From Acidobacteriota bacterium (GTDB taxonomy: Bacteria > Acidobacteriota > UBA6911 > RPQK01 > JAJDTT01), in assembly GCA_965217775.1 (NCBI GenBank), contig CBDCJH010000002.1:288001-352000 (forward strand): DNA of 64,000 nt. The letters run 5' to 3'. Both the position numbers and the translations under genes were made by a program. Positions 1,388 through 61,600 of the stretch are shown in pieces (positions within the stretch are counted from its first letter, which is position 1; each line of letters starts with the position of its first letter). The notes beneath the pieces were generated by a model. It was not told the origin of the DNA. It was given only the letters and a program-made list of their open reading frames with translations, and did not search any database.

Positions 1388-1909
1388 ATGCGAACTCTCT
1401 GCTGCCAGCTCTTGAACAGCTCTCTGGGCACCTTTCTCCTGGCCGCCTCCGATCAGGGGCTCTGCCGGTTGCTCCTCCCCGGCGAAGCGGACTGTTCCGG
1501 ATGGTTCGACAGGCATTTCGGGGGGCCGGCAGCTCCGGGATGGAACCCGGTTCTGCGGCGTGCAACGGCGCAGTTGGGGCAGTTCCTGGCGGGGGAAAGA
1601 CGAGAGTTCGATCTGGAGCTGGATCTGAGGGGGACGCCGTTCCAGATTGAGGTCTGGACCCGGCTGCGATCGATCCCCTTCGGCCAGACGCGAAGCTATG
1701 GCGAGGTGGCGGCCGGGATCGGGCGTCCCGGCTCCTCGCGCGCGGTGGGTGCGGCAACGGGCCGCAACCCACTACCCTTGGTGGTTCCCTGCCACCGGGT
1801 CATCGGTTCCAATGGACGCCTGGTGGGTTATGCGGGCGGTCTGGACCTGAAGCGGCAGTTGCTGGAGTTGGAAGGCGTCACCGTTCCGGGTCCGGCTGCC
1901 GCCAGATAG
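1388..1909 (+). CDS. ogt: Methylated-DNA--protein-cysteine methyltransferase
   Basis: GTPFQ..VW..L..IPFG.T.SYGEVA, RAVG.A...NP, active-site PCHRV, GYAGG. Confidence 0.93.
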   Translation: MRTLCCQLLNSSLGTFLLAASDQGLCRLLLPGEADCSGWFDRHFGGPAAPGWNPVLRRATAQLGQFLAGERREFDLELDLRGTPFQIEVWTRLRSIPFGQTRSYGEVAAGIGRPGSSRAVGAATGRNPLPLVVPCHRVIGSNGRLVGYAGGLDLKRQLLELEGVTVPGPAAAR

Positions 1910-1980
1910 GAGACTCTGGACCCGGAGGGCAACTCTCGTCGCCGATGGACTCGGAAGAACTTCCCCAGGCACTCCTCAAA
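1863..1980. repeat. Direct repeat copy A: ogt 3' end plus last codons of the methyltransferase at 61363-62763
   Basis: Ungapped alignment to 57810-57927 (24 mismatches in 118 nt by hand count; 61/68 in the distal part). Minus strand reads FEECLGKFFRVHRRRELPSGSRV. Confidence 0.85.
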
Positions 1981-1987
1981 TTCCGCG

Positions 1988-3370
1988 CTATCGCTCCTCA
2001 ACTTCCTGCTCTGGCGCCGGCACCGCCGGGTCATCGGTCAAACGCCCCAACATCTCATAGATTCGAATGATGCAATGATCCACGATCCGTTCGCCGGCGC
2101 CCGGTTCGATTCGAGCCCAGATATTCTTGGCACCGTGGCCGCCTTCGGTGGCCGCACGAATGGTCGGAAAGTAGCTGAAGAATCCGTTCGCGTAACCCAG
2201 GAAGAAACTATCGGAGACAGGAGACCGCTCGCGCCAGTTCATCTGGAACTCAATAAACGGCTCGCCCGGCATTCCCATGAATGCAATTTGCTTGTTGATC
2301 AGAATGGTGGTGACGGGAACTCGCTTTTCCGGCTTGATTTCGGGCAGATAGTACTGGCGGAGTTCGGGTTCCACACTCTTCTCAAAGGCTTTCATGTACT
2401 TTTCCAGGTCCCAGCGAAAACCGAACGTCAGCCAATCTTCGGAGAAATCGAGGCTCGCTTCAGGGGACGGTTCGGTCCGGATCTTCTTGGCCACGCGAAC
2501 GGCTTCCTCGCCTAGCGTTTCCCCGCTCCACTCCATTCTTGCGACCGGGTCTTCTGCAAGAGGCACGCCCGTGTAATAGGTGTCGATGTCGCCGGCGCCG
2601 CCGTTCAGGAAGAACCCCATGGTCTGAGGGCCGAAAGCCTCTTCCACGGTATTGCACATGACTCCGGGGAAATCGGCCGAATACTGCTTGAGGTTCGCCA
2701 TCACCACCACCGGGTGGCAGGCGTAGTTCACGAGAATGGCCAATGGCTTTCGGTTTTCGGTGTCTATGCGCAGGACTGCCACCGTGGGATCGAAGGGGGC
2801 GGTAGGAATCCTGGTCGGGTTCCTGAACATCATGGTCACGGTGCCGTCCGGGTTCAGTTTTCTCCGGTTGTGGCCGATGTAGGCCATTCCGTAACCTGTA
2901 CCCAGCCACGCCTCCGCCGCCCGCCCGTGAGCTTTTTCAGTGGCTTTTGCGATTTTCGCGACGGCGTCCTCCTGCCAGGCCACCATGCCGGTCAAGGGAA
3001 AATTTTCATTGATGGGAATAATGGGAGCGGAGTGAGTGTGGGTCGCGACCATGAGCACAAAGGAGATTCCGCTTGATTCCTTGACTTGTTGGCGCAGACG
3101 CTCCATCAAGGGTTCCTGAAAGACCCGGCAGAGATCGACCGTGATCAGTGCCAGCCGTGTTTGATCAACCTCCAGCACCAGGACGCGCGCGTACAGTGGG
3201 TCATGGGCTCCGGTGGCCAGCGTCGTCCCGGAACCGAGCATGTATTTGCCCGGAGCCGGAGTAATATCAACCTTGGCCACCCCGGCTCTCAGGTTGGAAC
3301 CATGCACCCACGGGCTCACCGTCAGGCCCAACAGACAAATACCAAAGCCAACCTTTTTCAGATCCGTCAT
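1988..3370 (-). CDS. Neutral/alkaline non-lysosomal ceramidase N-terminal domain family protein, secreted
   Basis: Signal peptide, LRAGVAKVDITP, HDPLYARVLVL, ATHTHSAP, NYACHP, SADFPG, PGEPF, GYANG...YFPT; start taken at MTDLKK after a GGAGA RBS. Confidence 0.8.
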   Translation of the reverse strand: MTDLKKVGFGICLLGLTVSPWVHGSNLRAGVAKVDITPAPGKYMLGSGTTLATGAHDPLYARVLVLEVDQTRLALITVDLCRVFQEPLMERLRQQVKESSGISFVLMVATHTHSAPIIPINENFPLTGMVAWQEDAVAKIAKATEKAHGRAAEAWLGTGYGMAYIGHNRRKLNPDGTVTMMFRNPTRIPTAPFDPTVAVLRIDTENRKPLAILVNYACHPVVVMANLKQYSADFPGVMCNTVEEAFGPQTMGFFLNGGAGDIDTYYTGVPLAEDPVARMEWSGETLGEEAVRVAKKIRTEPSPEASLDFSEDWLTFGFRWDLEKYMKAFEKSVEPELRQYYLPEIKPEKRVPVTTILINKQIAFMGMPGEPFIEFQMNWRERSPVSDSFFLGYANGFFSYFPTIRAATEGGHGAKNIWARIEPGAGERIVDHCIIRIYEMLGRLTDDPAVPAPEQEVEER

Positions 3371-3499
3371 TGGATTCTCCTCGATTGTAAGAAGTTGCTG
3401 AAGACACTTCGCCTCAGACCCGTTGGCAGTGTATTCGACGCCTGAAAAAAAGAACGGCAAGACGTGAGTCTGCCTGTTTCCCCAACGGCGAACTGACGA

Positions 3500-4651
3500 T
3501 TATTGAGGCTTTTCTTGAAGACCACTCTCGATGGCGAGATGTTTTTCCCGCCTCATTTTCTGTTGAATCGCCTGAAAGCGCTGAAGTTCCTCCAGGGCTT
3601 TTCCCACGTTTCCCAATTTCTTATGGATCTGGGCCAATTGATAGTGGGGAGCAGGTTCATCGGGGTCCAGGGCGATGGCCCGTTCTACGGCTGCTGCTGC
3701 CTCCTCCCAACGCCCCTTGCCGGCATACGCCTTCGAGAGTTCCAAAAATGCTTGGGGGAGCCGGTCGTTGGCACGCAACACTATGTTGAGATGCAGAATC
3801 GCCTCGTCAAACTCCTGCTCCATATTCTTGATGACAGCCAGGTTCAGACGTGCGATCGGAAGATCCGATTCCAATTCGAGCGCCTTCTCCAGATAGGGCC
3901 GGCCGTCTTCGTACAGCCCCTTCTCCAGGTATAGAATCCCCACAGCCTGGTTGAGTCCAGCCAGATTCGGGTCAAGGGCAAGTGCTTTGTGGTATTCGCT
4001 CAGGGCCTCCTCCGGACGGCCCTGAAAAACGTACGCCTCAGCCCGTACCTGATGGGTTCGGGAGGAGCCGGAGTCGAGCTTACGGAGCCGTTCGTAAATT
4101 TGCTCGAACTCGACAAACTTTCTGGTGTTGAGGTAGGCCTGCGCCAGCATGTGAAGGACCGGGACATGGCCGGGATCTCTTCGGGTCACCTCCTGGAGCA
4201 AATCGATCGCCTCACCGAAACGGTTCAGCGCCAAATAAGATCCAGCCAGGCACAACTGAAGGCTGATGTCCCCGGGACGAGCGGCGATAGCCCGCCCAAG
4301 AGGACCGAGTGCTTTCTCGTATTCGTAAAGAAGATAGTAATCGAGCCCCAGAAAAAGGTTCGCCTCGATCATGTCGGGATCGAGCTGCAATGTTTTTTGG
4401 AAGGCTCCTGTGGCCGCTTCATATTTCCCCTGGAAGTGACGGGCAAGACCCAGCCCATAATTGGCATCGGCGCTTTCGGGAGACAGCCTCAATATGGCCA
4501 GGTAGGTCTGCTCGGCTGAAACCCAATCTTGTCGTTTTGCCGCCTCGGAAGCCTGTTGGTAGTATTGCCCGAGCTGTTGCCGCTGGGGTGGAGTCTGAAG
4601 ACCTGAAAGCAGGAGCCCCGAGAGCAAGAGACCGACCAGCATTGCAGGCAA
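3500..4651 (-). CDS. Tetratricopeptide repeat protein
   Basis: Hydrophobic N-terminus followed by many TPR-like repeats (ANYGLGLA, ANLFLGLDY, ALDP); exact start uncertain. Confidence 0.8.
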   Translation of the reverse strand: MPAMLVGLLLSGLLLSGLQTPPQRQQLGQYYQQASEAAKRQDWVSAEQTYLAILRLSPESADANYGLGLARHFQGKYEAATGAFQKTLQLDPDMIEANLFLGLDYYLLYEYEKALGPLGRAIAARPGDISLQLCLAGSYLALNRFGEAIDLLQEVTRRDPGHVPVLHMLAQAYLNTRKFVEFEQIYERLRKLDSGSSRTHQVRAEAYVFQGRPEEALSEYHKALALDPNLAGLNQAVGILYLEKGLYEDGRPYLEKALELESDLPIARLNLAVIKNMEQEFDEAILHLNIVLRANDRLPQAFLELSKAYAGKGRWEEAAAAVERAIALDPDEPAPHYQLAQIHKKLGNVGKALEELQRFQAIQQKMRREKHLAIESGLQEKPQ

Positions 4652-4721
4652 AACCTACCAAGGCCGGCAGTCGGCATTCAAGTTCGGGTCAGGAGAGAAG
4701 CACGGTTTAGGAGGTCCCTCC

Positions 4722-6770
4722 ATGGTGCGAGCAAATTCACGGAGCGGGGACCGCTCCCACCTTCAATACCAGGTGAAAATCCTCTACACGCGCGTGCCGA
4801 TGCGCGACGGAGTGGAGCTGGGAGTGAAGATAACGCGGCCGGACGCGGAAGGCCGATTCCCGGCGGTAATGGAATACAACCCTTATCGCCGCATCAGAAA
4901 ACCCTTGGCCGACTATCGAGAGGAGTACCCCCCAGTCGTTCCCTACCTGGCCGGGCGCGGATATGTCATTGCCCAATTCGACGTGCGTGGTACGGGCAAT
5001 TCGAGTGGATGGAGCAAGGACATCTACTCTGCGGACGAGCGGCAGGACGGGTACGACATGGTGGAATGGATCGCCGCCCAATCCTGGTGCAACGGCAACG
5101 TGGGGATGATCGGCAAGTCCTACAGTGCAGTGGTGCAGTGGCAAGTCGCGGTGCAGGCGCCCCCCCATCTGAAAGCCATCATTGTGCGCTCGGCCAATGA
5201 CAACGTCTATACCGAGTGGACCTATCCGGGGGGTGTCCTTCGTCCCTACATGTTCGACAGTTACTCCGCTCTGATGAACGCCTACAATTTCTCGCCTCCC
5301 GACCCGGAGATCGTGGGAGAGAAGTGGAGCGAGATCTGGCAACAGCGCCTGGAAAACAGCCAACCTTGGGGCATCGGTTACATTTCGAATCAACTGGATG
5401 GGCCCTATTGGCAAGACCGGTCGCTGTCGACGGACTACGGCGCGGTCCAATGTGCCGTTTTCGTAATTGCCGGCTGGTCGGACTGCTATCCCACGGCGCT
5501 GTTGCGTGCCTTCTCAAAACTGAAGGTTCCCCACAAGCGGGCCTTGGTGGGTCCCTGGGGGCACTGGTACGGCGAAGAAGAATGCGCCGTGCCCGGCCCC
5601 AGGATCGATACCCGTCCGCTGTACCTGAACTGGTTCGACCACTGGCTCAAAGGGATCGACAACGGGGTGATGGACGAGCCGCCGGTCACTTTCTTCGTCA
5701 AGCGGTACAGTCCGCCTTCCGCACGGATGCCCCTCGAAGAAAAGGGTTTCTGGCGATCGGAGCGAGAGTGGCCGATCGCCCGGACCCGGCGCACGCCCCT
5801 CTACTTTCATTCCCACGGGAAGCTGAGCCCGGAGCCCTGTGGCACGGTCGTTGAAGAGCGGGACGAATACCCTTACAACCCTGGCGTGGGAATCACCTCC
5901 GGGATTCACTGGGGGGGAGGCATACTGCCCTGGGGAACGCCCATCGACCAGCGCTGGGACGAGGCGTATTCGGTGACCTATACAACGCCTCCACTGGAAG
6001 AAGATCTGGAGGTGACGGGAACCCCCACGGCCGTCATCTACGTCTCCTCCACGGCCGAGGTGGCCTACTTTCGGGTCAAGCTCATCGATGTGGCGCCGGA
6101 CGGCACTTCCAAACTGGTTCGCTATGGAGGCTTGAATGCCACCCACCGCGACTCCCACTTCGATCCCGAGCCTCTTACACCCGGGCAAGTGTATGAACTC
6201 AAGATCGACCTGAAAACGATGTCCTATATTTTCGGGACCGGGCACCGGATTCGCGTGGCCATTGCCAGTGCCGACATCCAGAATGCCTGGCCCACAGCCG
6301 AACCTGCCATCAATACGATCCATCGAGGCAGCCGCTATCCGTCACATATCGTCTTGCCCGTGATCCCCGGGCAGAATGCAGAGCTGCCCCAGCCCGATCT
6401 GGTGCGATTGTCCAATGCCGACCCACAAGACTTGTCCACACCGGAGGAATACTCGATCACCCACGACCTTGTGAATCAGAAGACCATATTTCGCATTGCT
6501 CCGGTGCACGTGCCCGAATCGGCCGGTTTTGACCTGCAACAGCATTCCAGCCTCACCGTCTCCACTGTCAATCCTGCCGAGGCGGTACTGAAGGCCTATT
6601 GCGCCTACACTCTCAAGCAGTTGGGTTCAGACATACGGATAGAGGCCAATGAACTGACCACCAGTGATGAGACGGCTTTTCGCCACCTGGTGCAGTTGAC
6701 GATAACGGTCGATGGGAAGCTTCACTTCAACAAGAGCTGGTCTCGTACGGTGCCCCGACTCTTGAACTGA
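4722..6770 (+). CDS. CocE/NonD family hydrolase
   Basis: VPMRDGVEL, YNPY, DVRGTGNSSG, nucleophile GKSYSA, GWSD, GPWGH, C-terminal PepX domain (LEVTGTP, GHRIRVAI); AGGAGG RBS. Confidence 0.9.
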   Translation: MVRANSRSGDRSHLQYQVKILYTRVPMRDGVELGVKITRPDAEGRFPAVMEYNPYRRIRKPLADYREEYPPVVPYLAGRGYVIAQFDVRGTGNSSGWSKDIYSADERQDGYDMVEWIAAQSWCNGNVGMIGKSYSAVVQWQVAVQAPPHLKAIIVRSANDNVYTEWTYPGGVLRPYMFDSYSALMNAYNFSPPDPEIVGEKWSEIWQQRLENSQPWGIGYISNQLDGPYWQDRSLSTDYGAVQCAVFVIAGWSDCYPTALLRAFSKLKVPHKRALVGPWGHWYGEEECAVPGPRIDTRPLYLNWFDHWLKGIDNGVMDEPPVTFFVKRYSPPSARMPLEEKGFWRSEREWPIARTRRTPLYFHSHGKLSPEPCGTVVEERDEYPYNPGVGITSGIHWGGGILPWGTPIDQRWDEAYSVTYTTPPLEEDLEVTGTPTAVIYVSSTAEVAYFRVKLIDVAPDGTSKLVRYGGLNATHRDSHFDPEPLTPGQVYELKIDLKTMSYIFGTGHRIRVAIASADIQNAWPTAEPAINTIHRGSRYPSHIVLPVIPGQNAELPQPDLVRLSNADPQDLSTPEEYSITHDLVNQKTIFRIAPVHVPESAGFDLQQHSSLTVSTVNPAEAVLKAYCAYTLKQLGSDIRIEANELTTSDETAFRHLVQLTITVDGKLHFNKSWSRTVPRLLN

Positions 6771-6836
6771 TTACGCTTTTTCAGGCCGGACTCGAAGGGA
6801 AGCACGGAAAAAGGGCCAGTAACTTTGTCGCCTTTT

Positions 6837-7757
6837 TCAAAATTCCTTGGAATGGCGAATGGCCCAAATCCAGGTCGCTCCCTCTTTTCCTCCCACCAGC
6901 CCATCCCAGGTGGAGTTCAGGTACAGAGTCCGGCCGTCGTAGCCCAGCCAGGGGCAGGTGTCGGTTCCGGGAGTGTTGATCCGCGGACCCATGTTCTGCA
7001 AGGGAGTCCATTGACCGTTGACTCTTCTGCTGATGTAGAGATCCACACTATCGCTTAGCGAATCATTCCTCCGCAGTGGAAGGATGATCGTGGTTTCGTC
7101 GGGATTGACGGCCACGTCGTTTTCGTCGCCGGCGCCGTTGACGACCGGGCCCAGGTTGACGGGCTCTCCCCACCGGTCCCAGCCGGAGCCGATGCGATCA
7201 CTGGTGTAGACGTCGAATCCGCCCTGTCCTCCCGGCCGATTGCTGGAGAAGTACAGTCTTCTCAGGTCCTTGGAGAGCAAGGCTCCGAATTGGACCGTAT
7301 CCGGAAGACTGACGGGAGGACCCAACAATTCGGCTGTGGACCAGGAGCCGTCACGGAAATGGGAGATATAGACGCGCGAGGATTTGCTGAAATCGTCGCT
7401 GCGCAGGAAAACCATGATGCTCCCGTCAGCCGAGAGTTTGGCATCGGCTTCGTGGGACCCGGTGTTGACCTGCGGGCCCGCATTGAAGGGTACGGACCAA
7501 CGCCCGTTCTCCAGGCGGGAGAACCAGATATCGAGCTTTCCCCGACCCTCCGGATGGTCTATTTGAAAGGCCAGAAGCCTCCCGTCTTCGGTCTCACTGG
7601 CACAAAAAGGTTTGGCGTCTTTCTCAAGCGGGATCGAAAGCCTGGATATGGCCAACTCTTCATTCTGGCCGTGAACGGCTGTTTCCAGGCTCAGCACCTG
7701 GAAAGCGACCAATCCCGATGTGATCGCGGCCGAGCAAAGCAATCGCAAATACGGCAT
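6837..7757 (-). CDS. PD40/TolB-like beta-propeller secreted protein
   Basis: Repeated WSxPxNxGPxVNT and LYFSSNRPGGQGGFDVY motifs. Confidence 0.8.
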   Translation of the reverse strand: MPYLRLLCSAAITSGLVAFQVLSLETAVHGQNEELAISRLSIPLEKDAKPFCASETEDGRLLAFQIDHPEGRGKLDIWFSRLENGRWSVPFNAGPQVNTGSHEADAKLSADGSIMVFLRSDDFSKSSRVYISHFRDGSWSTAELLGPPVSLPDTVQFGALLSKDLRRLYFSSNRPGGQGGFDVYTSDRIGSGWDRWGEPVNLGPVVNGAGDENDVAVNPDETTIILPLRRNDSLSDSVDLYISRRVNGQWTPLQNMGPRINTPGTDTCPWLGYDGRTLYLNSTWDGLVGGKEGATWIWAIRHSKEF

Positions 7758-7807
7758 CCGATGGTCCCCCCTTTTCGGCCCGAGGATTTTTCTCCTGTTT
7801 CAACGCC

Positions 7808-9475
7808 TTAGGGACGTGAATACTTGGCCTTTGCCTTGAGTTCTTGGAATCTCCTGAGATGATCTTCTGCCTTCTGGTGCTGCTGGAGCCTCTTGTAGAG
7901 GAGCCCGAGACGATAGTGGACTTCCTCCTCGAGCGGTTGGAGCTTGGAGCTCAGCTCGTATTCCCGGCTTGCCTCCTCCAGTCTTCCGTGCCTTTCCAGC
8001 ACCTTTCCCAGGATGAAACGGCAGGCGGCATCGTTGGCATCGACTGCGATGCCCCGCTGAGCCATCAGGAGCGCCGGCTCAAGCTGGTTGTGGCGTTCCA
8101 GAGCCGTGGCATAGACGTAATAGAGGAAAGGGTCTCTTGAATTAAGACTCAGGGCCTGCACATAGGCCTCCACCGCCTCGTCATAGGCGCCCAACTCCAG
8201 TTGGCTGTTCCCCAGGGCAAGATATGCGGCATAGAAATCGGGTCTGTTTTTCACCGCCGACGCCGAGGCGTCCCGGGCCTCCTCGAAACGATTTGCGGCA
8301 TGATGACTTCGGGCCTGGGTCAGAAGCAGATCCGGATCGTCCGGGAATCGGACAATTGCATATCCGAGAAGATCCCTGGCCAGCGGAAACAGGTTCTCCT
8401 TCAGCAGCTCCATTGAAATATCGAAGAGAAACTTCGGTTCGCTGGCCGTCGCAGGCATTCCCCGCTTGAGGGTATTGGAAGCCTCCGCCTCTTTCCCCTG
8501 CTTCAGGTGAGCGACGCTCAAGAGTCCATAAAGTTTCAGGGGCATTTTCGCGCCGCCGCGGGTGTACGGTTCCAGCAGCAGCACGACTCGTAAATAGTCC
8601 GCCTCCAGGTAGCAGGCATAGGCCAGCCAATAGTTCACCGGGAACGAGGACTCTCGCCTCCGGACCAGTTCGAACTCGGCGATGGCTTCGGAAGCCAGAC
8701 CGCGTTCGAGCATCCACTTGCCCACGCGCGTATGGATGACGGTATCGGCAGGCAGGATCCGTCTGAGCCGAGTAGCCAGGGGAACGGCCTCACGTGTCCG
8801 TCCCAGGTCGAGGTAGATTTCGACCAGGTAGACGAGTATCGCAGGGTCTCCCGGTCGCAGATGATGAGCACGCTCGAGAGCCGCCAGGGCGCGGGGCAAG
8901 TTGGCCTTCTTGAGATAGAGCAGGCCCAGGTTGTAGAAGGCGGCGGCCCGGTCAGGGTCCAGCTTGGTCACCTGCTCGAACTGCTCGATCGCCTTCTCCT
9001 GGTTGTCCAGACGCAGGTAGGTGACGCCCAGGTCGTTGTAGGCTCTCAAATCTCCGGGTTTCAACTCGAGAACACGCTCGAATTCGTGCACGGCTTCGGC
9101 ATAGCGCTTCATTCTCGAATAGACCATGCCCAAGCCACCGTGCAGGGAGGGTTCATCGGGGTACCTGTCGAGCAGAGCCCGGAAGGCTTTTTCGGCGTCT
9201 GCGAGTTTGCCTTCCTGGAGCAGGCGAAAAGCCTGCTGCGGATTCTGCCCGGCAACCTCGCCCTGCAGGAAAAGACCCACCAGCAGGATGGTCAGTAGGC
9301 GAGAACCCGGGATGTAGCGGGCCTGGCGGAAAGTGCCCTTCTGCTTCAGCCTCAAGGTGCCGGCCTCAGTTTTTCTCAGCCTCAATCCCGATGCCTTCCC
9401 TGATGGTGAGGAACTGATTGGCTGCGACCCCGGCGAATTTTTCCACCGACCCATCGGGCCATCGGACTTCCACAT
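7808..9475 (-). CDS. Tetratricopeptide repeat protein
   Basis: Many TPR repeats (AYNDLGVTY, AFYNLGLLY, AYLALGNSQ, VHYRLGLLY). True start is probably nearer 9330-9370 because of overlap with the upstream gene. Confidence 0.78.
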   Translation of the reverse strand: MWKSDGPMGRWKNSPGSQPISSSPSGKASGLRLRKTEAGTLRLKQKGTFRQARYIPGSRLLTILLVGLFLQGEVAGQNPQQAFRLLQEGKLADAEKAFRALLDRYPDEPSLHGGLGMVYSRMKRYAEAVHEFERVLELKPGDLRAYNDLGVTYLRLDNQEKAIEQFEQVTKLDPDRAAAFYNLGLLYLKKANLPRALAALERAHHLRPGDPAILVYLVEIYLDLGRTREAVPLATRLRRILPADTVIHTRVGKWMLERGLASEAIAEFELVRRRESSFPVNYWLAYACYLEADYLRVVLLLEPYTRGGAKMPLKLYGLLSVAHLKQGKEAEASNTLKRGMPATASEPKFLFDISMELLKENLFPLARDLLGYAIVRFPDDPDLLLTQARSHHAANRFEEARDASASAVKNRPDFYAAYLALGNSQLELGAYDEAVEAYVQALSLNSRDPFLYYVYATALERHNQLEPALLMAQRGIAVDANDAACRFILGKVLERHGRLEEASREYELSSKLQPLEEEVHYRLGLLYKRLQQHQKAEDHLRRFQELKAKAKYSRP

Positions 9476-53279: not shown

Positions 53280-53478
53280 CTGGTTTCGCAAGAACTGTCT
53301 GCTGATGTCGGAACACGATATCATGAAGGGTGGCCTCCCCAGAGTCGTCAACGGTTTCGTGTCGCTGCCCATGGTCCCGGGATCGGGGTCGATCTGGTCA
53401 GAGAGACGAGTTCCTGTGCAGGCCGCGGAGTGCCAGAAGACCTCACAGAAATATGACACCCATGATGTAGCTCTCTCT

Positions 53479-53643
53479 ATGGACCATTCCGGGAACGACC
53501 AACACTCCTTCGACGATTGGACTCAACTCGATCAAAATGAACCCTCCTGGCAAAGCGCCCTGATCGGTTTCGTCGTTATTTTCCTCTCGGTCGGTCTTTT
53601 CTTTCTCCTGTGGGTGGGACTGTTTCGGTATTCCTCCCCATGA
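53479..53643 (+). CDS. Small single-TM protein upstream of SSS transporter
   Basis: MDHSGNDQHSFDDW...ALIGFVVIFLSVGLFFLLWVGLF; ATGA overlap with the SSS gene. Confidence 0.55.
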   Translation: MDHSGNDQHSFDDWTQLDQNEPSWQSALIGFVVIFLSVGLFFLLWVGLFRYSSP

Positions 53644-55055: not shown

Positions 55056-55089
55056 CCGCGTTTCCCCGGCTATGGGCAGGAGACCGGCG

Positions 55090-56886
55090 CTACGGAATGA
55101 CCGGCAGCACCAGGCGGGACGGGTAGCGCTTGCTGTGATGGATGGTCTGGCGGGCCTTCAAGATCTCGGCACTCATCCCCGACCGGTTCCCTGTGTTCAG
55201 ATTCCGGGCGTAGCGGGGAAAGTCGCTGCTCGAGACCTCGAGGCGAATCCGGTGACCCGCCTTGAAGACGTTGCTGGTTTCCCACAGGTTGATCGAGTAC
55301 TCATAGACTTTCCCGGGTTCGATGGGAGTCGGATGCTCCAGTGACGCCCGAAAGCTGGCCCTCCGAATTCCCTCACAGATGAGAATGGCTCGGCCGTCCG
55401 GGTAGACATCGGTCAGCGCCGCAGTGAAATCCGTGTCCACGGCACTCGACGCGGCATACAATTTGAGTTCGACGGGCCCGGTGACTTCCAGGTCCTCCTC
55501 CAGGGGCTCCGAAGTGTAGACGAGAATATCCTGGCGCTCCTGCAGCGCTCGCCGATCCCGAGGGCCTTGCAACTCGGGATTCGTGGAAATACGCCCGCCC
55601 AAGGTGGGGACGGGATTTTCCGGATCGTAAACAAAGCCGTCCGCAGGAACGTTCGGTCCGAGTTCTGCGGTCGTCAAGGATCCGTCCCCCTGGAGCGAAT
55701 TGGCCTTTCCGTCGCTGTCCAGATAGAAGGGGGTGAATCGGGTTCGCTCCAGAGGCCATTCATTCTCGAAGCGCCACTGGTTCGCTCCCATCACGAAGAT
55801 CTTGATGGGCGGCTCCTCGCCAATGCCGTTTTTCATCCCCTTGAGCCAAAAGTCATACCAGCGCACGTGAAAATCAAGACTGTCGTAGGTTGCGTTCTCG
55901 CCGAAGTCGACGGGCCAGTCCGGGTCCACGCGATTTACCGCGTGGGTCCAGGGCCCGACGATGATCTTGGTGCCCTCCCGGGCGGCGGCAGATCCACCCT
56001 GTAGGCGAAACCCGTTCAGGTTTCTCCAGCCTTCGAGGAGAAGATTGCCGTACCAGCCGTTGACGAAGAAGGCAGGGGCCTGGATGAGATGGTATTTGTC
56101 CTTGATTCCGTGCGCCTTCCAGTACTCGTCATAGGTGGAATGCTCGATCCATTTCTTGACGTTGGGCAAATCCACAATGTCATCCAGGGCCGTGATCAAC
56201 GGCAATCGCCGATAGATCTCGTCATAGTCGAGAAAGGGATCGCCCGAATAGACACCGGCGATGGTGGGCTGCAACACTCTTCCGGAACCGAATAGACCGG
56301 CCGTAATCACCACGTTGAGCTGGAGCACGCCATCGTTGTAGATGTGTCCGAAATTGGTCTGCTGGCAGGAACTGGGGATCATGCACAGCACATGGGGACT
56401 CTGCAAGGGAGCCGGCATCAGTTGGGTGAAGCCGTTGTAGGAATGGCCGAAGAGGCCGATTTTTCCATTGCACCAGCTCTGTTTCCCCACCCACTGCTGG
56501 GTATCGTAGCCGTCCTCCGGTTCGTACACATAGAACTCGAATTCTCCGTCGGAATCGTAGCGTCCTCGGACGTCCACCATGACGACTGCATAGCCCCTGC
56601 GGGCGAAGTACAGGGCCATCTTCATATACCCCTGCGTCCCGTGATAGCTGCGCAGGAGCAGTGTCGGAAATTTTCCGGGTGCGTCAGGACGAAAGACATC
56701 GGCCGCCAGATTTACCCCGTCGCGCATGGGAACCTTCAGGTTGATCTGAGTCCTGATGCGATACTCGGGCTGGGACCTGGGTTCCTCTGCGCCCTGGGGC
56801 GCAATGCCTGCCGCCAGCGCGGCGCCGGCGAGCAGGAGGATGGTCAGCGGGATCGGGAGGGATGGCAATCGGCACTGGTTCGGCAT
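55090..56886 (-). CDS. CocE/NonD family hydrolase, secreted
   Basis: Signal peptide, VPMRDGVNLAAD, DVRGRYDSDG, GHSYNG, VGPWTH, YDPENPVPT, GHRIRLEVSSSDFPR. Confidence 0.9.
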   Translation of the reverse strand: MPNQCRLPSLPIPLTILLLAGAALAAGIAPQGAEEPRSQPEYRIRTQINLKVPMRDGVNLAADVFRPDAPGKFPTLLLRSYHGTQGYMKMALYFARRGYAVVMVDVRGRYDSDGEFEFYVYEPEDGYDTQQWVGKQSWCNGKIGLFGHSYNGFTQLMPAPLQSPHVLCMIPSSCQQTNFGHIYNDGVLQLNVVITAGLFGSGRVLQPTIAGVYSGDPFLDYDEIYRRLPLITALDDIVDLPNVKKWIEHSTYDEYWKAHGIKDKYHLIQAPAFFVNGWYGNLLLEGWRNLNGFRLQGGSAAAREGTKIIVGPWTHAVNRVDPDWPVDFGENATYDSLDFHVRWYDFWLKGMKNGIGEEPPIKIFVMGANQWRFENEWPLERTRFTPFYLDSDGKANSLQGDGSLTTAELGPNVPADGFVYDPENPVPTLGGRISTNPELQGPRDRRALQERQDILVYTSEPLEEDLEVTGPVELKLYAASSAVDTDFTAALTDVYPDGRAILICEGIRRASFRASLEHPTPIEPGKVYEYSINLWETSNVFKAGHRIRLEVSSSDFPRYARNLNTGNRSGMSAEILKARQTIHHSKRYPSRLVLPVIP

Positions 56887-57084
56887 GGGCTACTCCTGAG
56901 CAGTAGGGAAGCAAACGATTTCACCTCATTCTAGCCTGTTCACATGCCACCCGGAAACCAGTCGGGTATTGGAAAATCGGAGGCACCAGCCAAACCCGAA
57001 GGCCCGATAGGCGCAACGACCGGAAGAGACCCGCCCCACTTCCTGTTCTCGAACAGCCTCTTGGCAATGGATTCCTTCTTTCAA

Positions 57085-57119
57085 CCCTGGTATAACTACA
57101 ATTTGTAGTTATACCAGGG
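57085..57119. promoter_or_regulatory. Perfect 35-bp palindrome, likely BrnA operator
   Basis: CCCTGGTATAACTACAA-T-TTGTAGTTATACCAGGG directly upstream of the brnT ATG. Confidence 0.75.
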
Positions 57120-57121
57120 CA

Positions 57122-57397
57122 ATGGAATTTGAGTGGGACGAGGCCAAGAATCAAGCGAACATCCGGAAGCATGGTGTCAGTTTCGAGACCGCCAGACGCA
57201 TCTTCGAGAGCTTCGTCCTGACGTGGCTCGACGATCGCCGGGACTACGGCGAGGACCGCTACATCAGCATCGGCCGGATAGGGCGGGCGGCACGGATCGT
57301 GGTCGCTCATACCAACAGAGACGGTCGCACTCGGTTGATCTCCGCCCGTCCGGCGTCCCGCAAGGAAAGGCAGGCTTACCATGAGCGAATACGATAG
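57122..57397 (+). CDS. brnT: BrnT family toxin
   Basis: FEWDEAKNQANIRKHGVSFE, DYGEDRY..IG, RLISARPASRKER. Confidence 0.93.
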   Translation: MEFEWDEAKNQANIRKHGVSFETARRIFESFVLTWLDDRRDYGEDRYISIGRIGRAARIVVAHTNRDGRTRLISARPASRKERQAYHERIR

Positions 57398-57641
57398 CCC
57401 CCTTACCCCCGCGCAGATCGCGGCCACAAAGGACGAGAATATCGACTTCAGCGAAATCCCCGAGTTGGACGAAACCTTCTGGCAGCATGCGAAACTCATT
57501 GAGCCTGATCTTACGGAGCAGATCACCTTACGCGTTAAACGTTCGGTGTTGACCTATTTCAGAGCTTCGGGCAAGGGCTACCAAACACGGATCAACCGTG
57601 TGCTGGAAAGTTACGTGCGGGCACAGAGAGAGCCCAGATAG
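57381..57641 (+). CDS. brnA: BrnA family antitoxin
   Basis: IDFSEIPELDETFW, QITLRV...VL.YFRASGKGYQTRINRVL; overlaps brnT. Confidence 0.92.
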   Translation: MSEYDSPLTPAQIAATKDENIDFSEIPELDETFWQHAKLIEPDLTEQITLRVKRSVLTYFRASGKGYQTRINRVLESYVRAQREPR

Positions 57642-58074
57642 CATGGTTTCAACGCGCTATTGCCGTCCGCACAGATAGCTGGCTGCGCCGCCGCGTGGGG
57701 CACCTACTTGGCTTCGCTGGCGCACTGTCCCCAGAAAGCATCCACGACGCAGGTGTTCGGCCAGTCGGTCTCTACGCGTCTGGGCCCCTTTTTTATGGAC
57801 GCCGCCGGTTGGAGTTGGAATGCTTCGCCGTCCCCGGTTACGCCTCCGCGAAGCAGAGCACTCTGGACCCGGAGGGCAGCTCCTGGCGCCGGTGGACTCG
57901 GAAGCACTTCCCCAGGCACTCCTCGAAGTAGTCCATCCGGTAGTCGGTGTACTGGTCTTCCTTGTTTCGCAGCAGCATCCGGACCATGGGGTTGTCCCGC
58001 CGCACGAATTCGATGACCAGAGAGTCGCCCCACCCCGAGAGCCATTCGACGAACTCGTCCAGTGGGTGTTGTCG
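57559..58074. repeat. Direct repeat copy B: brnA 3' end + spacer + ogt tail + methyltransferase 3' end
   Basis: 57559-57644 matches 61197-61282 at 84/86; 57822-58074 matches 61347-61600; 57810-57927 matches 1863-1980. Confidence 0.9.
57838..58070 (-). pseudogene. Orphan 3' fragment of the 61363-62763 methyltransferase
   Basis: Reads FVEWLSGWGDSLVIEFVRRDNPMVRMLLRNKEDQYTDYRMDYFEECLGKCFRVHRRQELPSGSRVLCFAEA*; no start. Confidence 0.85.
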
Positions 58075-58142
58075 GAAGCCTCTGGCGAGGTGTCCGATGG
58101 TCGGTGCTCCGGATTGCGAAGCCGTGAACGCACCTCTTAGTC

Positions 58143-58194
58143 AACCATATGATCGTCTAGATGACTTGAATTCGAAAACGAAAAACCATATGAT
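58143..58194 (+). promoter_or_regulatory. Sigma70-type promoter with repeated operator-like boxes for the toxin cassette
   Basis: TTGAAT-17 nt-TATGAT (58166-58194); AACCATATGAT occurs twice (58143, 58184), the second covering the -10 box. Confidence 0.6.
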
Positions 58195-58230
58195 AGAAGT
58201 TGGTCAGGATTCACCGGTACGCTGAAACCG

Positions 58231-58743
58231 ATGGCTCCTCTTGACAAAGGGATAAGGCGCGAACTGGCGGTCCTTGCGAGACGGAGACAAGCTCGCGTGA
58301 CTGAGTTCAGGCTCAATCGTCCCACTGACTGGCGGCCTGGACAGGTGCGCAACCCCGCTGGAGTTCTTGATACCCACTTTACGGACGCTGCGGCATGGGA
58401 ACTGATCGCATTCAAGCTTGACAGTCCGTGGTGAAAGTCGCGCGAGCACCGAGACCGTTCCTGCGCCCGCCGGACAAGGCGCGATGAGGGAGCATACCGG
58501 GAGTATGTGACCGAGTCGCAACGCAGTCCGCCGGGATGCAGGGACGGTCGAATGCCGTGACGACTTTTGCCACGGGCTGTTGAGGGCGGCCACCCGGTGG
58601 AGATCATCGAATTACACCATCCCCCGGGCCGCACTGGGTACGTCATGATGATTGATATTGAGCCCGGTCAACCCCAACTTTACGTGAAACTCCAACTGGG
58701 TTCCGGGAAGATAATCGGACGGAGCTTTCACTACTCCGAATAG
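58231..58743 (+). pseudogene. MqsR/RelE-superfamily-like toxin interrupted by a MITE
   Basis: Removing 58422-58583 restores a 116-aa ORF ending ...TGYVMMIDIEPGQPQLYVKLQLGSGKIIGRSFHYSE*, with the YxK...SFH tail typical of MqsR-like toxins. Confidence 0.72.
58422..58579. mobile_element. 158-bp MITE with IS1182-type ends
   Basis: Ends CAGTCCGTGGTGAAAGTC / GACTTTTGCCACGGGCTG (right end identical to the IS1182 copies), TTGA target duplication (58418-58421, 58580-58583), internal stems. Confidence 0.88.
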
Positions 58744-58764
58744 AAAGATTGAGGGAGTTGGAAA

Positions 58765-59325
58765 ATGAAATCTCGAAGCTCTACAACTCGGTTGCGGGAT
58801 ACACGGAAAGAGGTCGCCTGTCCGCAATGCGGGGATTTTGGGATAACTACCTCGCGGCATCGCCAGACATTCGCATACGGGTCCGGCGATTCTGTAGTCG
58901 AGTTGGCTGCAGACGTTCCGGTACGCTGCTGCGGCGCGTGCGAGTTCCAATACCTGGACGAAGAGTCCGAGCGCATCAGGCACGAGGCTGTCTGCAAACA
59001 CCTTGGTGTTTTGTCACCCGCCGAGATTCGACGCATCAGAGCAAGTCATCAAATGACACGCACGAAATTCGCTGGCATCACAGGGCTCGGCGAAGCTTCA
59101 TTGAATCGTTGGGAGAACGGGCTGACAGTTCAGACCCGCGCGAACGATCGCTACATCAGGCTTCTGGCGCGACCTGCGATCATGCAGCTTCTCAACAACC
59201 TCGTGGATGCCAGAGAGTCGCCGAGACCTGTGTTGAGGACTGGCGGGAATCGTTTCCGGACGCTGGAAGTTACCGACGCTATGTGTAAGAAGCAAGGGGA
59301 TTTCCAATTGCGACGGGTTGCGTGA
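58765..59325 (+). CDS. MqsA-like antitoxin (Zn ribbon + XRE HTH + C-terminal extension)
   Basis: CPQCG...VPVRCCGACEFQY, LSPAEIRRIR...MTRTKFAGITGLGEASLNRWENG..VQTRAND. Confidence 0.85.
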   Translation: MKSRSSTTRLRDTRKEVACPQCGDFGITTSRHRQTFAYGSGDSVVELAADVPVRCCGACEFQYLDEESERIRHEAVCKHLGVLSPAEIRRIRASHQMTRTKFAGITGLGEASLNRWENGLTVQTRANDRYIRLLARPAIMQLLNNLVDARESPRPVLRTGGNRFRTLEVTDAMCKKQGDFQLRRVA

Positions 59326-59329
59326 CGAT

Positions 59330-61153
59330 ATGTACGTTACGACTTTCTACTCATTCAAGGGCGGCGTCGGCCGAACGATGGCCCTGGTCAATGCGGCCGT
59401 CGAACTCACCAAGAGAGGCCGTCGCGTACTTGCGGTGGACTTTGATCTGGAGGCACCTGGGCTCGATACTTTCGACGTAATGCGACCTCGGAATTCTGTC
59501 CCTGGGGTCATCGACTTCGTAAGTGAGTACCTGGCTTCGGGACAAGCACCGGAGGCCAGTAGATTCATCAGCAAAGCCTCTGGAATCACTGACCACGATG
59601 GCAGACTATGGATAATGCCGTCAGGTAGAGACGAGACGTACGCCAAGAATTTCAATCAGATTGACTGGGGGGTGCTGTACGAAAGACATGACGGCTTTCT
59701 CCTATTCGAAGATCTCAAAGCACAATGGAATCGAGTAGTGAATCCGGATTATGTTTTGATTGATTCACGGACGGGACATACCGATACTGGTGGTATCTGT
59801 ACCCGCCAGCTTCCAGATGCCGTAGCGATTCTGTTTTTTCCGAACGAACAAAACCTGCGCGGTTTGACCAAGGTCGTTCGGGATATTCGATCCGAGGCCC
59901 TCGAACCACGCAAAAAACCCATCCAGCTCCATTTCGTGATGTCCAACGTGCCGGACCTGGACGACGAAGACAGGATTCTCAGCGAACAGATCAAAGCTTT
60001 TCAGACGCAACTTGGCTTCAGGACAGATCCGATGGTCGTGCACAGATACGATAGTCTTTCGCTACTGAACCAAGTCGTGTTTGCAAAGGATCGACCGAGA
60101 AGCCGACTTGCAAGGGAATATAGACGGATAGTTCGTGAGATATCGGGGCGCAACTGGGCTGATCGGGACGGCGCCCTGGATTATATCAGTCGTGCAGCGA
60201 AACGCTGGCGGGGGAACGCGGATGAATCGATACAGGCACGAGAAGGCATGCTCGAAAAGATTGAAGATGCTCACTCGAGGGACGGGGAGGTATTGTTCCG
60301 TCTTGGTGAACTAAGGGATAGTGTTCGACAACCGGAATGGGCCGTGTCCTTGTACAATCGAGCGATTGATGCGGGATACGATAGACCTGAGGCCTACTTG
60401 AAACGGGCTCGTATTCGCGCAGAGAATGGCGATCGTGCAGGTGCGTCTGAGGACGCATTGCACGTATTGGAGTTCGATGAAGTGTCACCGCCAATGGTGC
60501 GGGATGCAATCCTGCGGACAGTCTCCCTTACTCCCGCAGAAATTGCCGCCTCAAACGCTGTTACGTCGCTGGATTTGGATGACAAAATTTGGCTTGCAAG
60601 TACATTCGACCGTTCTCCGGCCGAGATACGGATCGCTTTGCCTATTTGGAAACGTATCAATAGCGATAATCTGCCGGCAGAAAAGCTTCAGATGGTAAGA
60701 CACCACTTGGGATTGTCGTATATTGGAATTGGAAGGTGTTCTGATGCTGTAACGGTGCTCCGCCAGGGTGCGCGAAGTTACGGCGATATGGCTATTGCCG
60801 ATGCGTTCGATTGTGCCATGGCGATGTGGGGCGAGTCTGGAACTCCTGACGCTGAGGCGTTCCTACGGGTTGTCGAACTCAATCAGTCGAACTCACAGAA
60901 GCACGAAGGACCGAATTACCTTCAATGCATGGCGATTGCATACTGGGCATCGGGCAATACAGAGATGGCGATCGAGTACGTGGACCGGGCACAACAGGCA
61001 ATACGAACGACCCGTAGAGCGACGGTGTTCAGTTGTTGGTGTTACTGCCGCGTAAATGCAGGCACTTTCGTGGCTGATCTGGATGCAATTCGCACATTGA
61101 TCGATGGCGAGACGTCACTGATGCCCCGATTCATGGCTGCATCCGAGAAGTGA
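59330..61153 (+). CDS. KGGVGR-motif ParA/MinD-type ATPase with C-terminal TPR-like region
   Basis: TFYSFKGGVGRTMALVN, VDFDLEAPGL, DYVLIDSRTG, PNEQNL.G; helical TPR-like C-terminal half. Confidence 0.85.
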   Translation: MYVTTFYSFKGGVGRTMALVNAAVELTKRGRRVLAVDFDLEAPGLDTFDVMRPRNSVPGVIDFVSEYLASGQAPEASRFISKASGITDHDGRLWIMPSGRDETYAKNFNQIDWGVLYERHDGFLLFEDLKAQWNRVVNPDYVLIDSRTGHTDTGGICTRQLPDAVAILFFPNEQNLRGLTKVVRDIRSEALEPRKKPIQLHFVMSNVPDLDDEDRILSEQIKAFQTQLGFRTDPMVVHRYDSLSLLNQVVFAKDRPRSRLAREYRRIVREISGRNWADRDGALDYISRAAKRWRGNADESIQAREGMLEKIEDAHSRDGEVLFRLGELRDSVRQPEWAVSLYNRAIDAGYDRPEAYLKRARIRAENGDRAGASEDALHVLEFDEVSPPMVRDAILRTVSLTPAEIAASNAVTSLDLDDKIWLASTFDRSPAEIRIALPIWKRINSDNLPAEKLQMVRHHLGLSYIGIGRCSDAVTVLRQGARSYGDMAIADAFDCAMAMWGESGTPDAEAFLRVVELNQSNSQKHEGPNYLQCMAIAYWASGNTEMAIEYVDRAQQAIRTTRRATVFSCWCYCRVNAGTFVADLDAIRTLIDGETSLMPRFMAASEK

Positions 61154-61196
61154 GCACCGAAACGCGACGTGAAGGATGAGCGGAACGAACAAGAAA

Positions 61197-61600
61197 TCAG
61201 AGCATCGGGCAAGGGCTACCAGACACGGATCAACCGTGTGCTGGAAAGTTACGTGCGGGCACAGAGAGAGCCCAGATAGCATTGTTCGACGCGCTGTGGC
61301 CGGTCCGAGTAGGTCGGGCCACGACGCCGCGTGAGGCGTCTCCGTGGCTTCGCCGTCCCAGGTCACGCTTCCGCAAAGTAGAGGACTCTGGACCCGGAGG
61401 GCAGCTCCTGGCGCCGGTGGACCCGGAAGCACTTCCCCAGGCAATCCTCGAAGTAGTCCATCCGGTAGTCGGTGTACTGGTCTTCCTTGTTCCGCAGCAG
61501 CATCTTGACCATGGGGTCGTCCCGCCGCACGAATTCGATGACCAGAGAGCCGCCCAGCCCCGAGAGCCATTCCACGAACTCGGCCAGGGGGATGTTGGCG
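61197..61600. repeat. Direct repeat copy C: brnA 3' fragment + spacer + intact methyltransferase 3' end
   Basis: Matches copy B except for a 111-bp segment between two GCTTCGC microhomologies (57711, 57822). Confidence 0.9.

Follow-up and report, generated by a model that had tools for sequence, protein, structure and literature searches.

We analyzed a stretch of 64,000 nucleotides (nt) from the genome of an Acidobacteriota bacterium (assembly GCA_965217775.1, contig CBDCJH010000002.1, positions 288,001-352,000 of the forward strand), in which the 3' ends of two genes recur as three imperfect direct repeats. This whole stretch is called the window below, and positions are counted from its first base. 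The first of the two genes is ogt (1388-1909, plus strand), an intact gene for a methylated-DNA-protein-cysteine methyltransferase (Pfam DNA_binding_1, E 1.5e-34; TIGR00589, E 1.6e-32). The second, which we call MT (61363-62763, minus strand), is also intact and encodes a protein of 466 amino acids (aa) modeled with a class-I S-adenosylmethionine (SAM) methyltransferase fold. To the left of ogt lies xerD (303-1322, plus strand; an open frame from base 3), which scores 383 bits as a XerD equivalog (TIGR02225) against a cut-off of 329.6. The flank to the right of MT (62807-64000) holds a small membrane-like open reading frame (ORF; 62807-63172, minus strand) and mqnC (63195 to the window end, plus strand), whose truncated ORF matches TIGR03699 MqnC at 2.5e-107.

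The name methyltransferase for MT, given in an initial annotation of this DNA, appears to hold at the level of the predicted fold. The structure model (pLDDT 84, pTM 0.87) had at least 500 matches in the PDB at E ≤ 0.001; among the matches listed most are SAM methyltransferases, and the best of these is NodS (3ofj; E 3.4e-8, TM on target 0.73). The protein contains the SAM-binding motif DLGANTGDYS. Its sequence relatives number 6294 at E ≤ 1e-3 among 8000 scored, and some sources label them SAM-dependent methyltransferases. At the level of a family the name finds no counterpart: no Pfam or NCBIfam entry matched MT, even at E ≤ 10.

Repeat pairs were identified by self-BLAST of the whole window. 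Related loci came from one collection of species-representative genomes, scanned once with the MT protein and extended by 10-kb flanks. This gave 20 loci: eight from close Acidobacteriota (L001-L008; 88-93% aa identity to MT), six at about 60% identity and six more distant. By their record titles, the relatives are metagenome-assembled genomes. Domain scans covered 60 chosen ORFs and 149 of 155 further stop-to-stop frames of at least 110 codons; the six frames left out are alternative frames over xerD.

Three copies of a gene junction

We refer to the three repeats as A, B and C. Copies A and B match over 118 nt without gaps (1863-1980 and 57810-57927; offset 55947), with 24 mismatches (79.66% identity, E 5.6e-22). 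Copies A and C match over 107 nt (1874-1980 and 61346-61452; 80.4%, E 7.9e-20), and copies B and C over 254 nt (57822-58074 and 61347-61600; 92.1%, E 4.9e-83). Next to copies B and C there is a second pair of matching blocks (57559-57724 and 61197-61360; 167 nt, 84.4%, E 9.5e-39), made up of the 3' end of the antitoxin gene brnA and a spacer. The initial annotation had reported three diverged direct repeats, and its values for the length, mismatches and offset of A and B were reproduced exactly; it had A, B and C right and had missed the block with the brnA tail.

Each copy joins an ogt tail to an MT tail. Copy A (1863-1980) consists of the last 16 codons of ogt (1863-1909), overlapping and then followed by an orphaned MT tail of 29 codons in minus sense (1894-1980); it ends 8 nt before the stop codon of the next gene (1988). 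Copy B (57810-58083, minus strand) is an ogt-tail stub with an orphaned version of the last 78 MT codons (57838-58074), and its homology to MT fades at 58075-58083. Copy C (61346-61600) comprises the last 78 codons of the intact MT gene itself, together with an ogt-tail stub. The block beside copy B (B-left; 57559-57724, plus strand) is the tail and spacer of the resident brnA. This gene belongs to an intact brnT-brnA toxin-antitoxin pair at 57122-57641 on the plus strand (brnT 57122-57397, Pfam BrnT_toxin 2.1e-25; brnA 57381-57641, Pfam BrnA_antitoxin 1.1e-12). Its partner beside copy C (C-left; 61197-61360, plus strand) is an orphaned brnA tail, with about the last 27 codons and the stop codon (61275-61277), again followed by the spacer.

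The coding sense of both genes is still legible in the copies. On the plus strand, in the ogt frame, all three read as ogt-like tails: A ends in LELEGVTVPGPAAAR followed by a stop codon, B in LELECFAVPGYASAKQ, and C in GFAVPGHASAK followed by a stop codon, with A and C stopping at the aligned ogt stop codon. On the minus strand, B reads as the final 78 MT codons with the stop codon retained, and A as 29 MT-like codons with no frameshift (translation FEECLGKFFRVHRRRELPSGSRVSYLAAA). The 11-mer TGGAGTTGGAA is found in both A (1863-1873) and B (57810-57820). In addition, 111 nt that are present in B are missing from C; they are flanked by 7-nt direct repeats, GCTTCGC, at 57711-57717 and 57822-57828. 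The B-specific segment between these repeats (57718-57821), the right end of which is the ogt-tail stub from 57810 on, is likewise missing from L004 and L008. A microhomology deletion between the GCTTCGC repeats, removing the 111 nt that B keeps, would explain the junction form of C, L004 and L008.

A profile made from 14 copies detected A, B and C (E 2.5e-40 to 3.2e-46) and nothing further in the window, the next match being at E 1.7. On about 390 kb of related loci it found the MT tails and the three visible ogt tails, and nothing else. By this search we reject, within the window and those related loci, the dispersed repeat that the initial annotation had named as a way in which its reading could fail. 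An RNA gene or structured element in the repeats was also rejected, as no Rfam family reached its gathering score in the window and there is no tRNA there.

A probable ancestral junction and a variable interval

The flanks of related loci retain pieces of the same junction. All eight close relatives have, just past the MT stop codon, sequence homologous to the tail of the true ogt gene; the alignment of window 1800-2000 to each of these flanks begins 17-32 nt past the stop, and a motif coding for LELEG is recognizable in copy B and in five of the eight MT flanks. The ogt gene itself is in reach in three of the 20 loci (L004, L006 and L008), where its side and strand are as expected and, in L004 and L008, xerD follows on its far side; in all three, the true ogt tail is followed by MT-tail sequence. 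Because each gene keeps a piece of the other, these reciprocal stubs indicate that ogt and MT once lay tail to tail, as the initial annotation had proposed, and they support a convergent arrangement in which the two would have overlapped by about 18 nt.

The distance between ogt and MT varies widely. It is about 4.0 kb in L004, about 4.3 kb in L008 and about 9.8 kb in L006; it exceeds 10 kb in L001, L002, L003 and L007 and comes to 59,453 nt in the window. The order mqnC-small ORF-MT is kept in all eight close relatives. Seven of them have enough flank for their architecture to be compared (the contig of L005 ends too early), and these seven show seven architectures, the window being an eighth. 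The ogt-MT interval is a hotspot of variable content between conserved flanks, and here the initial annotation, which had suggested an integrase-free variable hotspot, was right.

It was not right that about 56 kb were added between A and B in one event, nor that almost the whole window is accreted cargo. In a whole-window alignment, the genes stand in the same order as in the relatives, at 85-95.5% nt identity, with blocks missing. The right part of the interval (42210-57023: SSF2, amidase, DUF7133-cytochrome c, ASPIC2, two hypothetical genes, hydantoinase B, SSF3 and S15 peptidase b) is collinear with L001, L002, L003 and L007 at 88-95.5% nt identity, and SSF2 and the amidase gene also occur in L004, L006 and L008. 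The left part (1988-20418), in which Pfam identifies two ceramidase-like genes, three TPR genes, an S15 peptidase, PD40, ASPIC/FG-GAP, an outer-membrane beta-barrel protein, an SSF symporter and an amidohydrolase, has counterparts in L006: S15a, SSF1 and stubs of TPR1 and TPR3, at 82-91% nt identity. The core between these parts (20419-42209), rich in insertion sequences (IS) and defence genes, is absent from L004, L006 and L008, which are all the relatives that reach it.

The short intervals end in fragments of genes that are complete in the window. L004 and L008 retain the first 33 codons, encoding the signal peptide, of the S15 peptidase gene 55090-56886, with the break at window 56788. L006 retains the 5' ends of the TPR genes 3500-4651 and 19108-20394. 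Stubs of window genes at these breakpoints point to deletions in those lineages, and the short intervals of L004, L006 and L008 appear to be deletion derivatives of a long one, each deletion sparing the promoter side of a divergent neighbor. We took the polarity of gain and loss from such stubs and not from a rooted species tree, because the flanks are recombination mosaics. Collinearity with the relatives and the breakpoint stubs lead us to reject the idea that A and B enclose one 56-kb island; most of the DNA between the two copies is, to judge from these alignments, an old interval common to the clade and older than the species split. Only the core at 20.4-42.2 kb looks like late cargo, which it could be, and it has no apparent connection with the repeats.

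The MT end of the interval has been reshaped in several relatives. The brnT-brnA pair is present in six of the eight close relatives, absent in L001 and out of reach in L005. L004 has a broken pair, as it lacks the equivalent of window 57162-57425 (L004 11698-12071 against window 56788-57426), in which brnT ends and brnA begins; the pair of L008 is intact. Between brnA and MT, an AbiEi/AbiEii-like pair is intact in L002 only (11786-13524; weak Pfam matches, E 4.3e-5 and 4.7e-4) and eroded in L003 (14262-14907), L005 (at the contig end), L006 (11414-11921) and L007 (11500-12606). About 29 codons of the AbiEii-like gene are left in L005, L006 and L007, where it is truncated directly against the ogt stub. 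No remnant of this module is present in the window. Taken together, the gene stubs and the eroded AbiE-like modules indicate turnover by illegitimate breaks and deletions.

Two further candidates were rejected. The fillers at the breakpoints of the relatives are not relics of window genes, since a comparison with the window gave no match at E ≤ 0.01 for any of them; for several the match was to the AbiE-like module of L002 instead. Nor is a longer MT remnant hidden behind ogt in L004, L006 or L008, where alignment scores of 9-10 fell within those of 300 shuffles (means 11-12), compared with 41 for copy A.

Origin of the repeats and of module Z

Copies B and C are separated by a gene cassette that we call module Z (58140-61196, plus strand). 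It consists of an ORF for a putative toxin partner (about 58192-58743), a gene for an MqsA-like antitoxin (58765-59325) and a gene for a KGGVGR-motif ATPase with TPR (59318-61153), supported by matches to Pfam MqsA_antitoxin (1.5e-8), NF047398 (1.3e-49) and PADLOC PDC-M28B (3.1e-30). The first ORF matched no family, and its label as a toxin partner is putative and follows from its position. L003 holds an intact version of this ORF, of 131 aa, which has no significant Pfam match at E ≤ 1 (best E 0.33, DUF3482). Two minus-strand ORFs in this region (58137-58646 and 58612-59001) were rejected as spurious: they match no family and overlap the plus-strand ORF conserved in L003. Within the window, the ORF upstream of the MqsA-like gene is split by a 160-nt miniature inverted-repeat transposable element (MITE; 58421-58579). 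The terminal inverted repeats of this element, CCGTGGTGAAAGTCG ... CGACTTTTGCCACGG, match the ends of an IS that occurs twice in the interval, and the element is found elsewhere, near the SSF3 gene, in L001 (13425-13584) and L003 (19336-19457) at 93-94% identity. Two copies of AACCATATGAT lie upstream of the first ORF of module Z in the window.

Exactly at the right end of module Z begins a tract (61197-61835) of the haplotype of L004 and L008. In it lie C-left, copy C and, past copy C, about 235 nt of MT. A single uninterrupted match of 434 nt takes in C-left together with the MT tail and is 94.2% identical to L004 and 93.3% to L008, while C-left is 84% identical to the window's own brnA tail. 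In L004, brnA and MT are directly adjacent, and in L008 they are neighbors. We counted informative sites, at which L004 and L008 agree and both differ from L001. The window agreed with L004/L008 at 15 sites and with L001 at none in 61340-61600; the counts were 13 and 4 in 61601-61836, 3 and 16 in 61837-62019, and 7 and 50 in 62401-62763. The foreign-looking tract, of about 640 nt, therefore ends inside MT, about 235 nt past the repeat. That donor-type sequence extends to the right of the repeat is consistent with a crossover within MT, and not with one limited to the repeat.

Further to the right, window 62760-63350 (the small ORF and the start of mqnC) is 93-100% identical to L002, compared with about 85-92% in neighboring stretches. 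It looks like a recent recombination tract shared with L002, a relative other than the one matched by copy C. Along 2.8 kb of the MT-mqnC flank the closest relative is thus first L004/L008, then L001 and then L002, and recombination there is elevated only in comparison with a clonal expectation.

Copies A and B have the character of alleles. Copies B and C differ at 16 positions in 225 nt, and 11 of the B states occur in other live alleles. Five states are found in B alone: one is synonymous, and the four non-synonymous ones affect residues on which the other nine sequences agree. C has a single state of its own. The synonymous distance between B and C, 0.163, lies within the range of live alleles (0.09-0.36), and their MT tails differ at 7 of 76 residues. 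On this evidence copy B is a distinct, barely decayed allele and not a decayed duplicate of C. Outside the ogt ORF, copy A differs from the allele consensus at eight positions, six synonymous and two not (binomial P 0.005 under neutral decay), which supports the view that it, too, is an allele rather than a product of local decay. Two proposals of the initial annotation are borne out by these results: that the repeats look like alleles of related strains, and that the 3-kb module was a separate addition, with copy C in a tract of the L004/L008 type and B a distinct allele.

The junction might instead have been duplicated in tandem on the spot, with cargo then inserted between copies that slowly diverged. 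This, too, would leave direct repeats flanking inserted DNA, and copy B has indeed lost its function and acquired non-synonymous changes of its own. However, 11 of the 16 differences between B and C segregate in the alleles of other species, and C has only the one unique state. C-left is 94% identical to L004 but only 84% to the brnA tail of the window itself, and neutral decay of B over the whole synonymous distance predicts about 15 non-synonymous changes on its branch by a rough estimate, compared with the four observed. We find such a history hardly credible.

We hold, with moderate confidence, that the repeats are scars of 3'-end displacement at MT, which borders a hotspot of exchange, and that the displacement occurred by homology-facilitated illegitimate recombination. 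The ancestor would have had ogt and MT convergent, with the overlap of about 18 nt, and DNA from related lineages would have entered at least twice. One end of each incoming piece would have recombined homologously inside MT, and the other would have been joined illegitimately slightly downstream. Each such event would install a new MT 3' end with donor DNA behind it and push the resident tail downstream as a dead fragment. Copy A would then be the oldest displaced tail, still attached to ogt; copy B the tail displaced last; and copy C the working tail that arrived with the last event. The latest import would span about 3.7 kb (about 58.1-61.8 kb) and carry the toxin-antitoxin/ATPase cassette, the 27-codon stub of the donor brnA and about 470 nt of the donor MT. 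It would have been a linear piece of the chromosome of a relative, recombined homologously near 61835 and joined illegitimately at 58075-58083 in the resident MT tail. An earlier event of the same kind would have separated ogt from MT and left copy A. Later changes to the interval may have been deletions in other lineages, the arrival of addiction modules beside MT and, in its middle, a gain of IS and defence genes. The analysis shows the repeats, the reciprocal stubs, the variable content, the haplotype switch inside MT, the allele status of A and B and the absence of an integrase; the sequence of events, the linear-fragment mechanism and the way in which DNA entered are what we infer.

The explanation that we rank second is a Campbell-type addition, in which a circle carrying cargo and a copy of the junction, made up of the tail of a neighboring gene and the MT tail, would integrate by one homologous crossover in the junction and so duplicate it. 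The same repeats could later excise the cargo as a circle able to enter relatives, an idea close to that of the initial annotation. One step of this kind gives both a truncated MT tail to the left of module Z (copy B) and a brnA tail to its right (C-left), and likewise the pair of copy A and ogt stub; the ends of Z are, moreover, fixed in two contexts. No recombinase is needed, in keeping with the 60 ORFs and 149 frames scanned, and a model of this type has been published for strings of orphaned 3' fragments (PMC2935791). Yet a crossover within the shared segment of about 420 bp cannot carry the donor tract past 61600, and the tract reaches about 61835 (13 versus 4 sites). L003 also has module Z without a duplicated junction, and the origin of the first circle is unexplained. 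We regard the Campbell-type route as unlikely, if still a serious contender.

Site-specific integration is addressed by the recombinase genes and by the breakpoints. The Phage_integrase domain was found in one of the 60 chosen ORFs (xerD, which lies outside the repeats) and in none of the 149 further frames, and no serine-recombinase (resolvase) family matched in either set. The xerD gene adjoins the region in six of the 20 loci, including relatives at 60% identity, and is a housekeeping tyrosine recombinase gene of the conserved syntenic core. The absence of an island integrase and of tRNA, and the housekeeping character of xerD, had been noted correctly in the initial annotation. A 19-nt block, ACTCTGGACCCGGAGGGCA, is identical in A, B and C and varies among the MT alleles of relatives. 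The boundaries of B and C (58075-58083 and 61196/61197) and the haplotype switch (about 61835) lie outside it, and the ogt-stub boundaries on the MT side scatter over about 25 nt. The sequence ATAA-N6-TTAT, which we take to be a minimal dif-like pattern and which may not be the dif of this phylum, has one occurrence in the window, at 26736, outside all of the repeats.

Tandem islands could have accreted by integration at an att-like core in the 3' end of MT if the recombinase was later lost, was supplied by the host (as for H47 of Escherichia coli) or was Xer. The identical 19-nt block, inside which two lineages break at the same nucleotide, and the presence of xerD two genes away are what this explanation predicts. 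Islands with imperfect direct repeats and no recombinase of their own are reported to excise and integrate (PMC3191183), and other islands are described that insert at a site in a gene of which they bring a divergent copy (PMC4405046). The scans, however, gave no integrase beyond xerD and no resolvase family, the block is not conserved among the MT alleles of relatives, and neither the B and C boundaries nor the haplotype switch is related to it. The lack of a dif-like pattern in the repeats, the standing of xerD as a conserved syntenic core gene and the scatter of the ogt-stub boundaries also argue against it. We consider site-specific integration rather improbable. About equally doubtful, in our judgment, is a more speculative combination: the junction repeats may be a portable homology cassette, with which cargo leaves as a circle and re-enters any relative that has the conserved MT tail. 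This would be a self-propagating, integrase-free type of island dependent on host recombination, with exchange perhaps focused on the 19-nt block, as in H47, and with module Z as one passenger.

A number of observations weigh against 3'-end displacement by illegitimate joining. L004/L008 and L006 break at the same nucleotide, after GGAC behind ogt (L004 about 15398, L008 about 15664 and L006 about 21181, corresponding to window 1921/1922, the center of the 19-nt block), and unrelated fillers follow. Illegitimate joints should scatter; a shared break suggests that some step may prefer a site. The two ends of module Z are the same in the window and in L003 (11415-14261), with four different sequences beside them, and L003 lacks duplicated tails; the cassette may move by a mechanism of its own. 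Given the shared ogt-side break and the fixed ends of Z, a step that prefers a site, as in H47, or one specific to the cassette may have taken part. The haplotype tract could be an unrelated gene conversion, as the whole flank is mosaic, and the counts on which it and the status of A are based are small (17 informative sites in 61601-61836 and eight differences for A).

Other observations bear on the ancestral adjacency. The ogt side is visible in L004, L006 and L008 and lies beyond the 10-kb flank in L001, L002, L003 and L007. The empty junction that the initial annotation had proposed to look for in relatives, ogt directly beside MT, was found in none of the 20 loci of the one collection scanned, and the adjacency is read from stubs only. 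The nearest outgroups carry rmuC at the position of ogt. The relatives at 60% identity have the order MT-rmuC-xerD-murJ and no ogt; rmuC lies between MT and xerD in L010 and L014 (about 11450-12890; Pfam RmuC 2.2e-97 in L014) and also in L009 and L011.

Finally, an assembly artefact could have produced both the haplotype switch and the duplicated junction, as a consensus of co-occurring strains. The relatives are themselves assembled from metagenomes, and the flank is a mosaic of L004/L008-, L001- and L002-like tracts; the initial annotation, too, had named a chimera of strains as a result that would refute it. But the left joint, from MT codon -78 to module Z, offers no shared sequence at which an assembler could switch, copy B has substitutions of its own, and similar orphaned stubs are present in eight independent assemblies. 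Mosaic flanks are, furthermore, expected at real hotspots (PMC5635113). We judge an artefact to be very unlikely.

Interval content and comparison with known systems

The core of the interval (20419-42209) contains eight ORFs with transposase domains, a TrlF/Ppl-like ATPase gene, a type II DNA methylase gene, a DruA-DDE fusion and a gene for a GWxTD protein. Transposase domains were found in eight of the 60 ORFs, an IS load that the initial annotation did not mention. Two direct copies of one IS (22447-23933 and 28884-30370) are 99.9% identical over 1487 nt and have the ends CTAGCAGCCCGTGGCAAAAG; they bracket about 5 kb with other transposase genes. In both copies the DUF772 and DDE_Tnp_1_6 domains are in different frames, a frameshift that is either programmed or inactivating.

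The TrlF-family/Ppl-like gene (30966-33821) encodes an SMC-type ATPase of 951 aa (NCBIfam 4.9e-129; PADLOC Ppl 1.8e-44). It lies in the lowest-GC patch of the window (0.48, with 0.48-0.53 at 30-34 kb; 0.584 for the window overall) and is probably a recently acquired defence gene. The type II DNA methylase gene (36568-37449; PADLOC MTase_II 3.1e-116) is overlapped at its start by an IS1595 transposase gene and followed by an ORF of 201 aa that has no family match and is possibly its restriction partner (36568-38058 together). An ORF of 604 aa (38352-40166) combines a DruA (Druantia) domain with DDE_Tnp_1_assoc and DDE transposase domains, and had no PADLOC match. PADLOC also returned no match for brnT/brnA, for the AbiE-like pair or for MT.

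Outside the core, several genes have distant paralogs within the interval. The S15 peptidases (4722-6770 and 55090-56886) are 31% identical in aa sequence. The ASPIC/FG-GAP genes (9366-11141 and 48618-50327) are 42% identical in aa and 58% in nt sequence over 1.5 kb, in inverted orientation. There are three SSF symporter genes (14714-16351, 42463-43920 and 53610-55055) and two ceramidase-like genes (1988-3460 and 16481-17791). The interval looks like a collection of modules for the utilization of peptides and amino acids.

As a hotspot, the locus resembles those described by Oliveira, Touchon and Rocha (2017, PMC5635113), in which hotspots between core genes without mobile-element genes diversify by recombination in the flanking core genes. 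As in their account, the flanks are conserved and syntenic (here mqnC-MT and ogt-xerD) and are recombination mosaics, the content differs in nearly every genome and is enriched in defence, toxin-antitoxin and IS genes, and there is no integrase or tRNA. The events described there are double crossovers in both flanks and leave no scar, whereas at least two events here left duplicated gene ends, which suggests that one side was joined illegitimately. Our comparison, moreover, spans species-level relatives, while theirs is described for strains of one species.

The duplicated ends recall displacement arrays, in which an intact gene is followed by orphaned 3' fragments, as in rhs, CDI (contact-dependent growth inhibition) and type VI secretion system (T6SS) effector loci. 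Here, copies B (78 codons) and A (29 codons) lie behind MT in the same orientation. At rhs loci, C-terminal displacement is described as leaving a series of orphaned 3' ends behind a gene that is itself intact, and a circular-intermediate model has been proposed (Jackson et al. 2009, PMC2935791); orphan-immunity arrays of the Vibrio cholerae T6SS have been ascribed to homology-facilitated illegitimate recombination (PMC5361080). The likeness extends to the match of the orphans with alleles of relatives, the lack of an integrase and the anchor in a conserved part of the gene. The published cases, as described, are polymorphic-toxin genes with functionally different tips and immunity genes, and displacement changes the weapon. 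In contrast, the MT tails encode near-identical protein and displacement would be a by-product of bringing in downstream cargo; there are also only two orphans here, 3.3 and 59.5 kb away. The locus works like a displacement array but is not a polymorphic-toxin locus, given its near-identical tails and plain class-I methyltransferase fold.

Homology-facilitated illegitimate recombination is reported for transformable bacteria (de Vries & Wackernagel 2002, Prudhomme et al. 2002, and Meier & Wackernagel 2003, as cited in PMC5361080) and also in conjugation of E. coli (PMC3240628). The laboratory events, as described in these sources, share with the locus one homologous anchor and one illegitimate joint beside a conserved gene, which are here read from sequence. 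The H47 island of E. coli, whose mobility is reported from experiments and works without homologous recombination (Azpiroz et al. 2011, PMC3191183; see also PMC5426353), is alike in that extensive imperfect direct repeats flank cargo without a recombinase gene of its own, and it recombines in short blocks of identity. Unlike the H47 repeats as described, those at our locus are gene ends and not dedicated sites.

The locus also differs from the islands that carry their own integrase. Gene-end direct repeats bound inserted DNA in both cases, and the target gene is intact. Islands with an integrase insert at the 3' end of a gene for a tRNA or a protein and bring a copy that restores it, sometimes in tandem arrays. 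An island that targets recA is one example (PMC4405046). At our locus, by contrast, there is no integrase, the repeats range in length from 118 to more than 400 nt, their copies have diverged and no single core holds the breakpoints.

We regard the locus as a further case of a known phenomenon and not as a new class of system. For the uncultured soil and sediment phylum Acidobacteriota, it would be a clean, dated example of a chromosomal hotspot that gains and loses DNA with no mobile-element machinery dedicated to it. Which allele was resident and which was imported would be recorded in the orphaned tails, and the stubs in relatives indicate that deletion, and not gain alone, makes the differences in size. 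For methods that call genomic islands, the lesson is that direct repeats of gene ends 56 kb apart need not delimit a single island.

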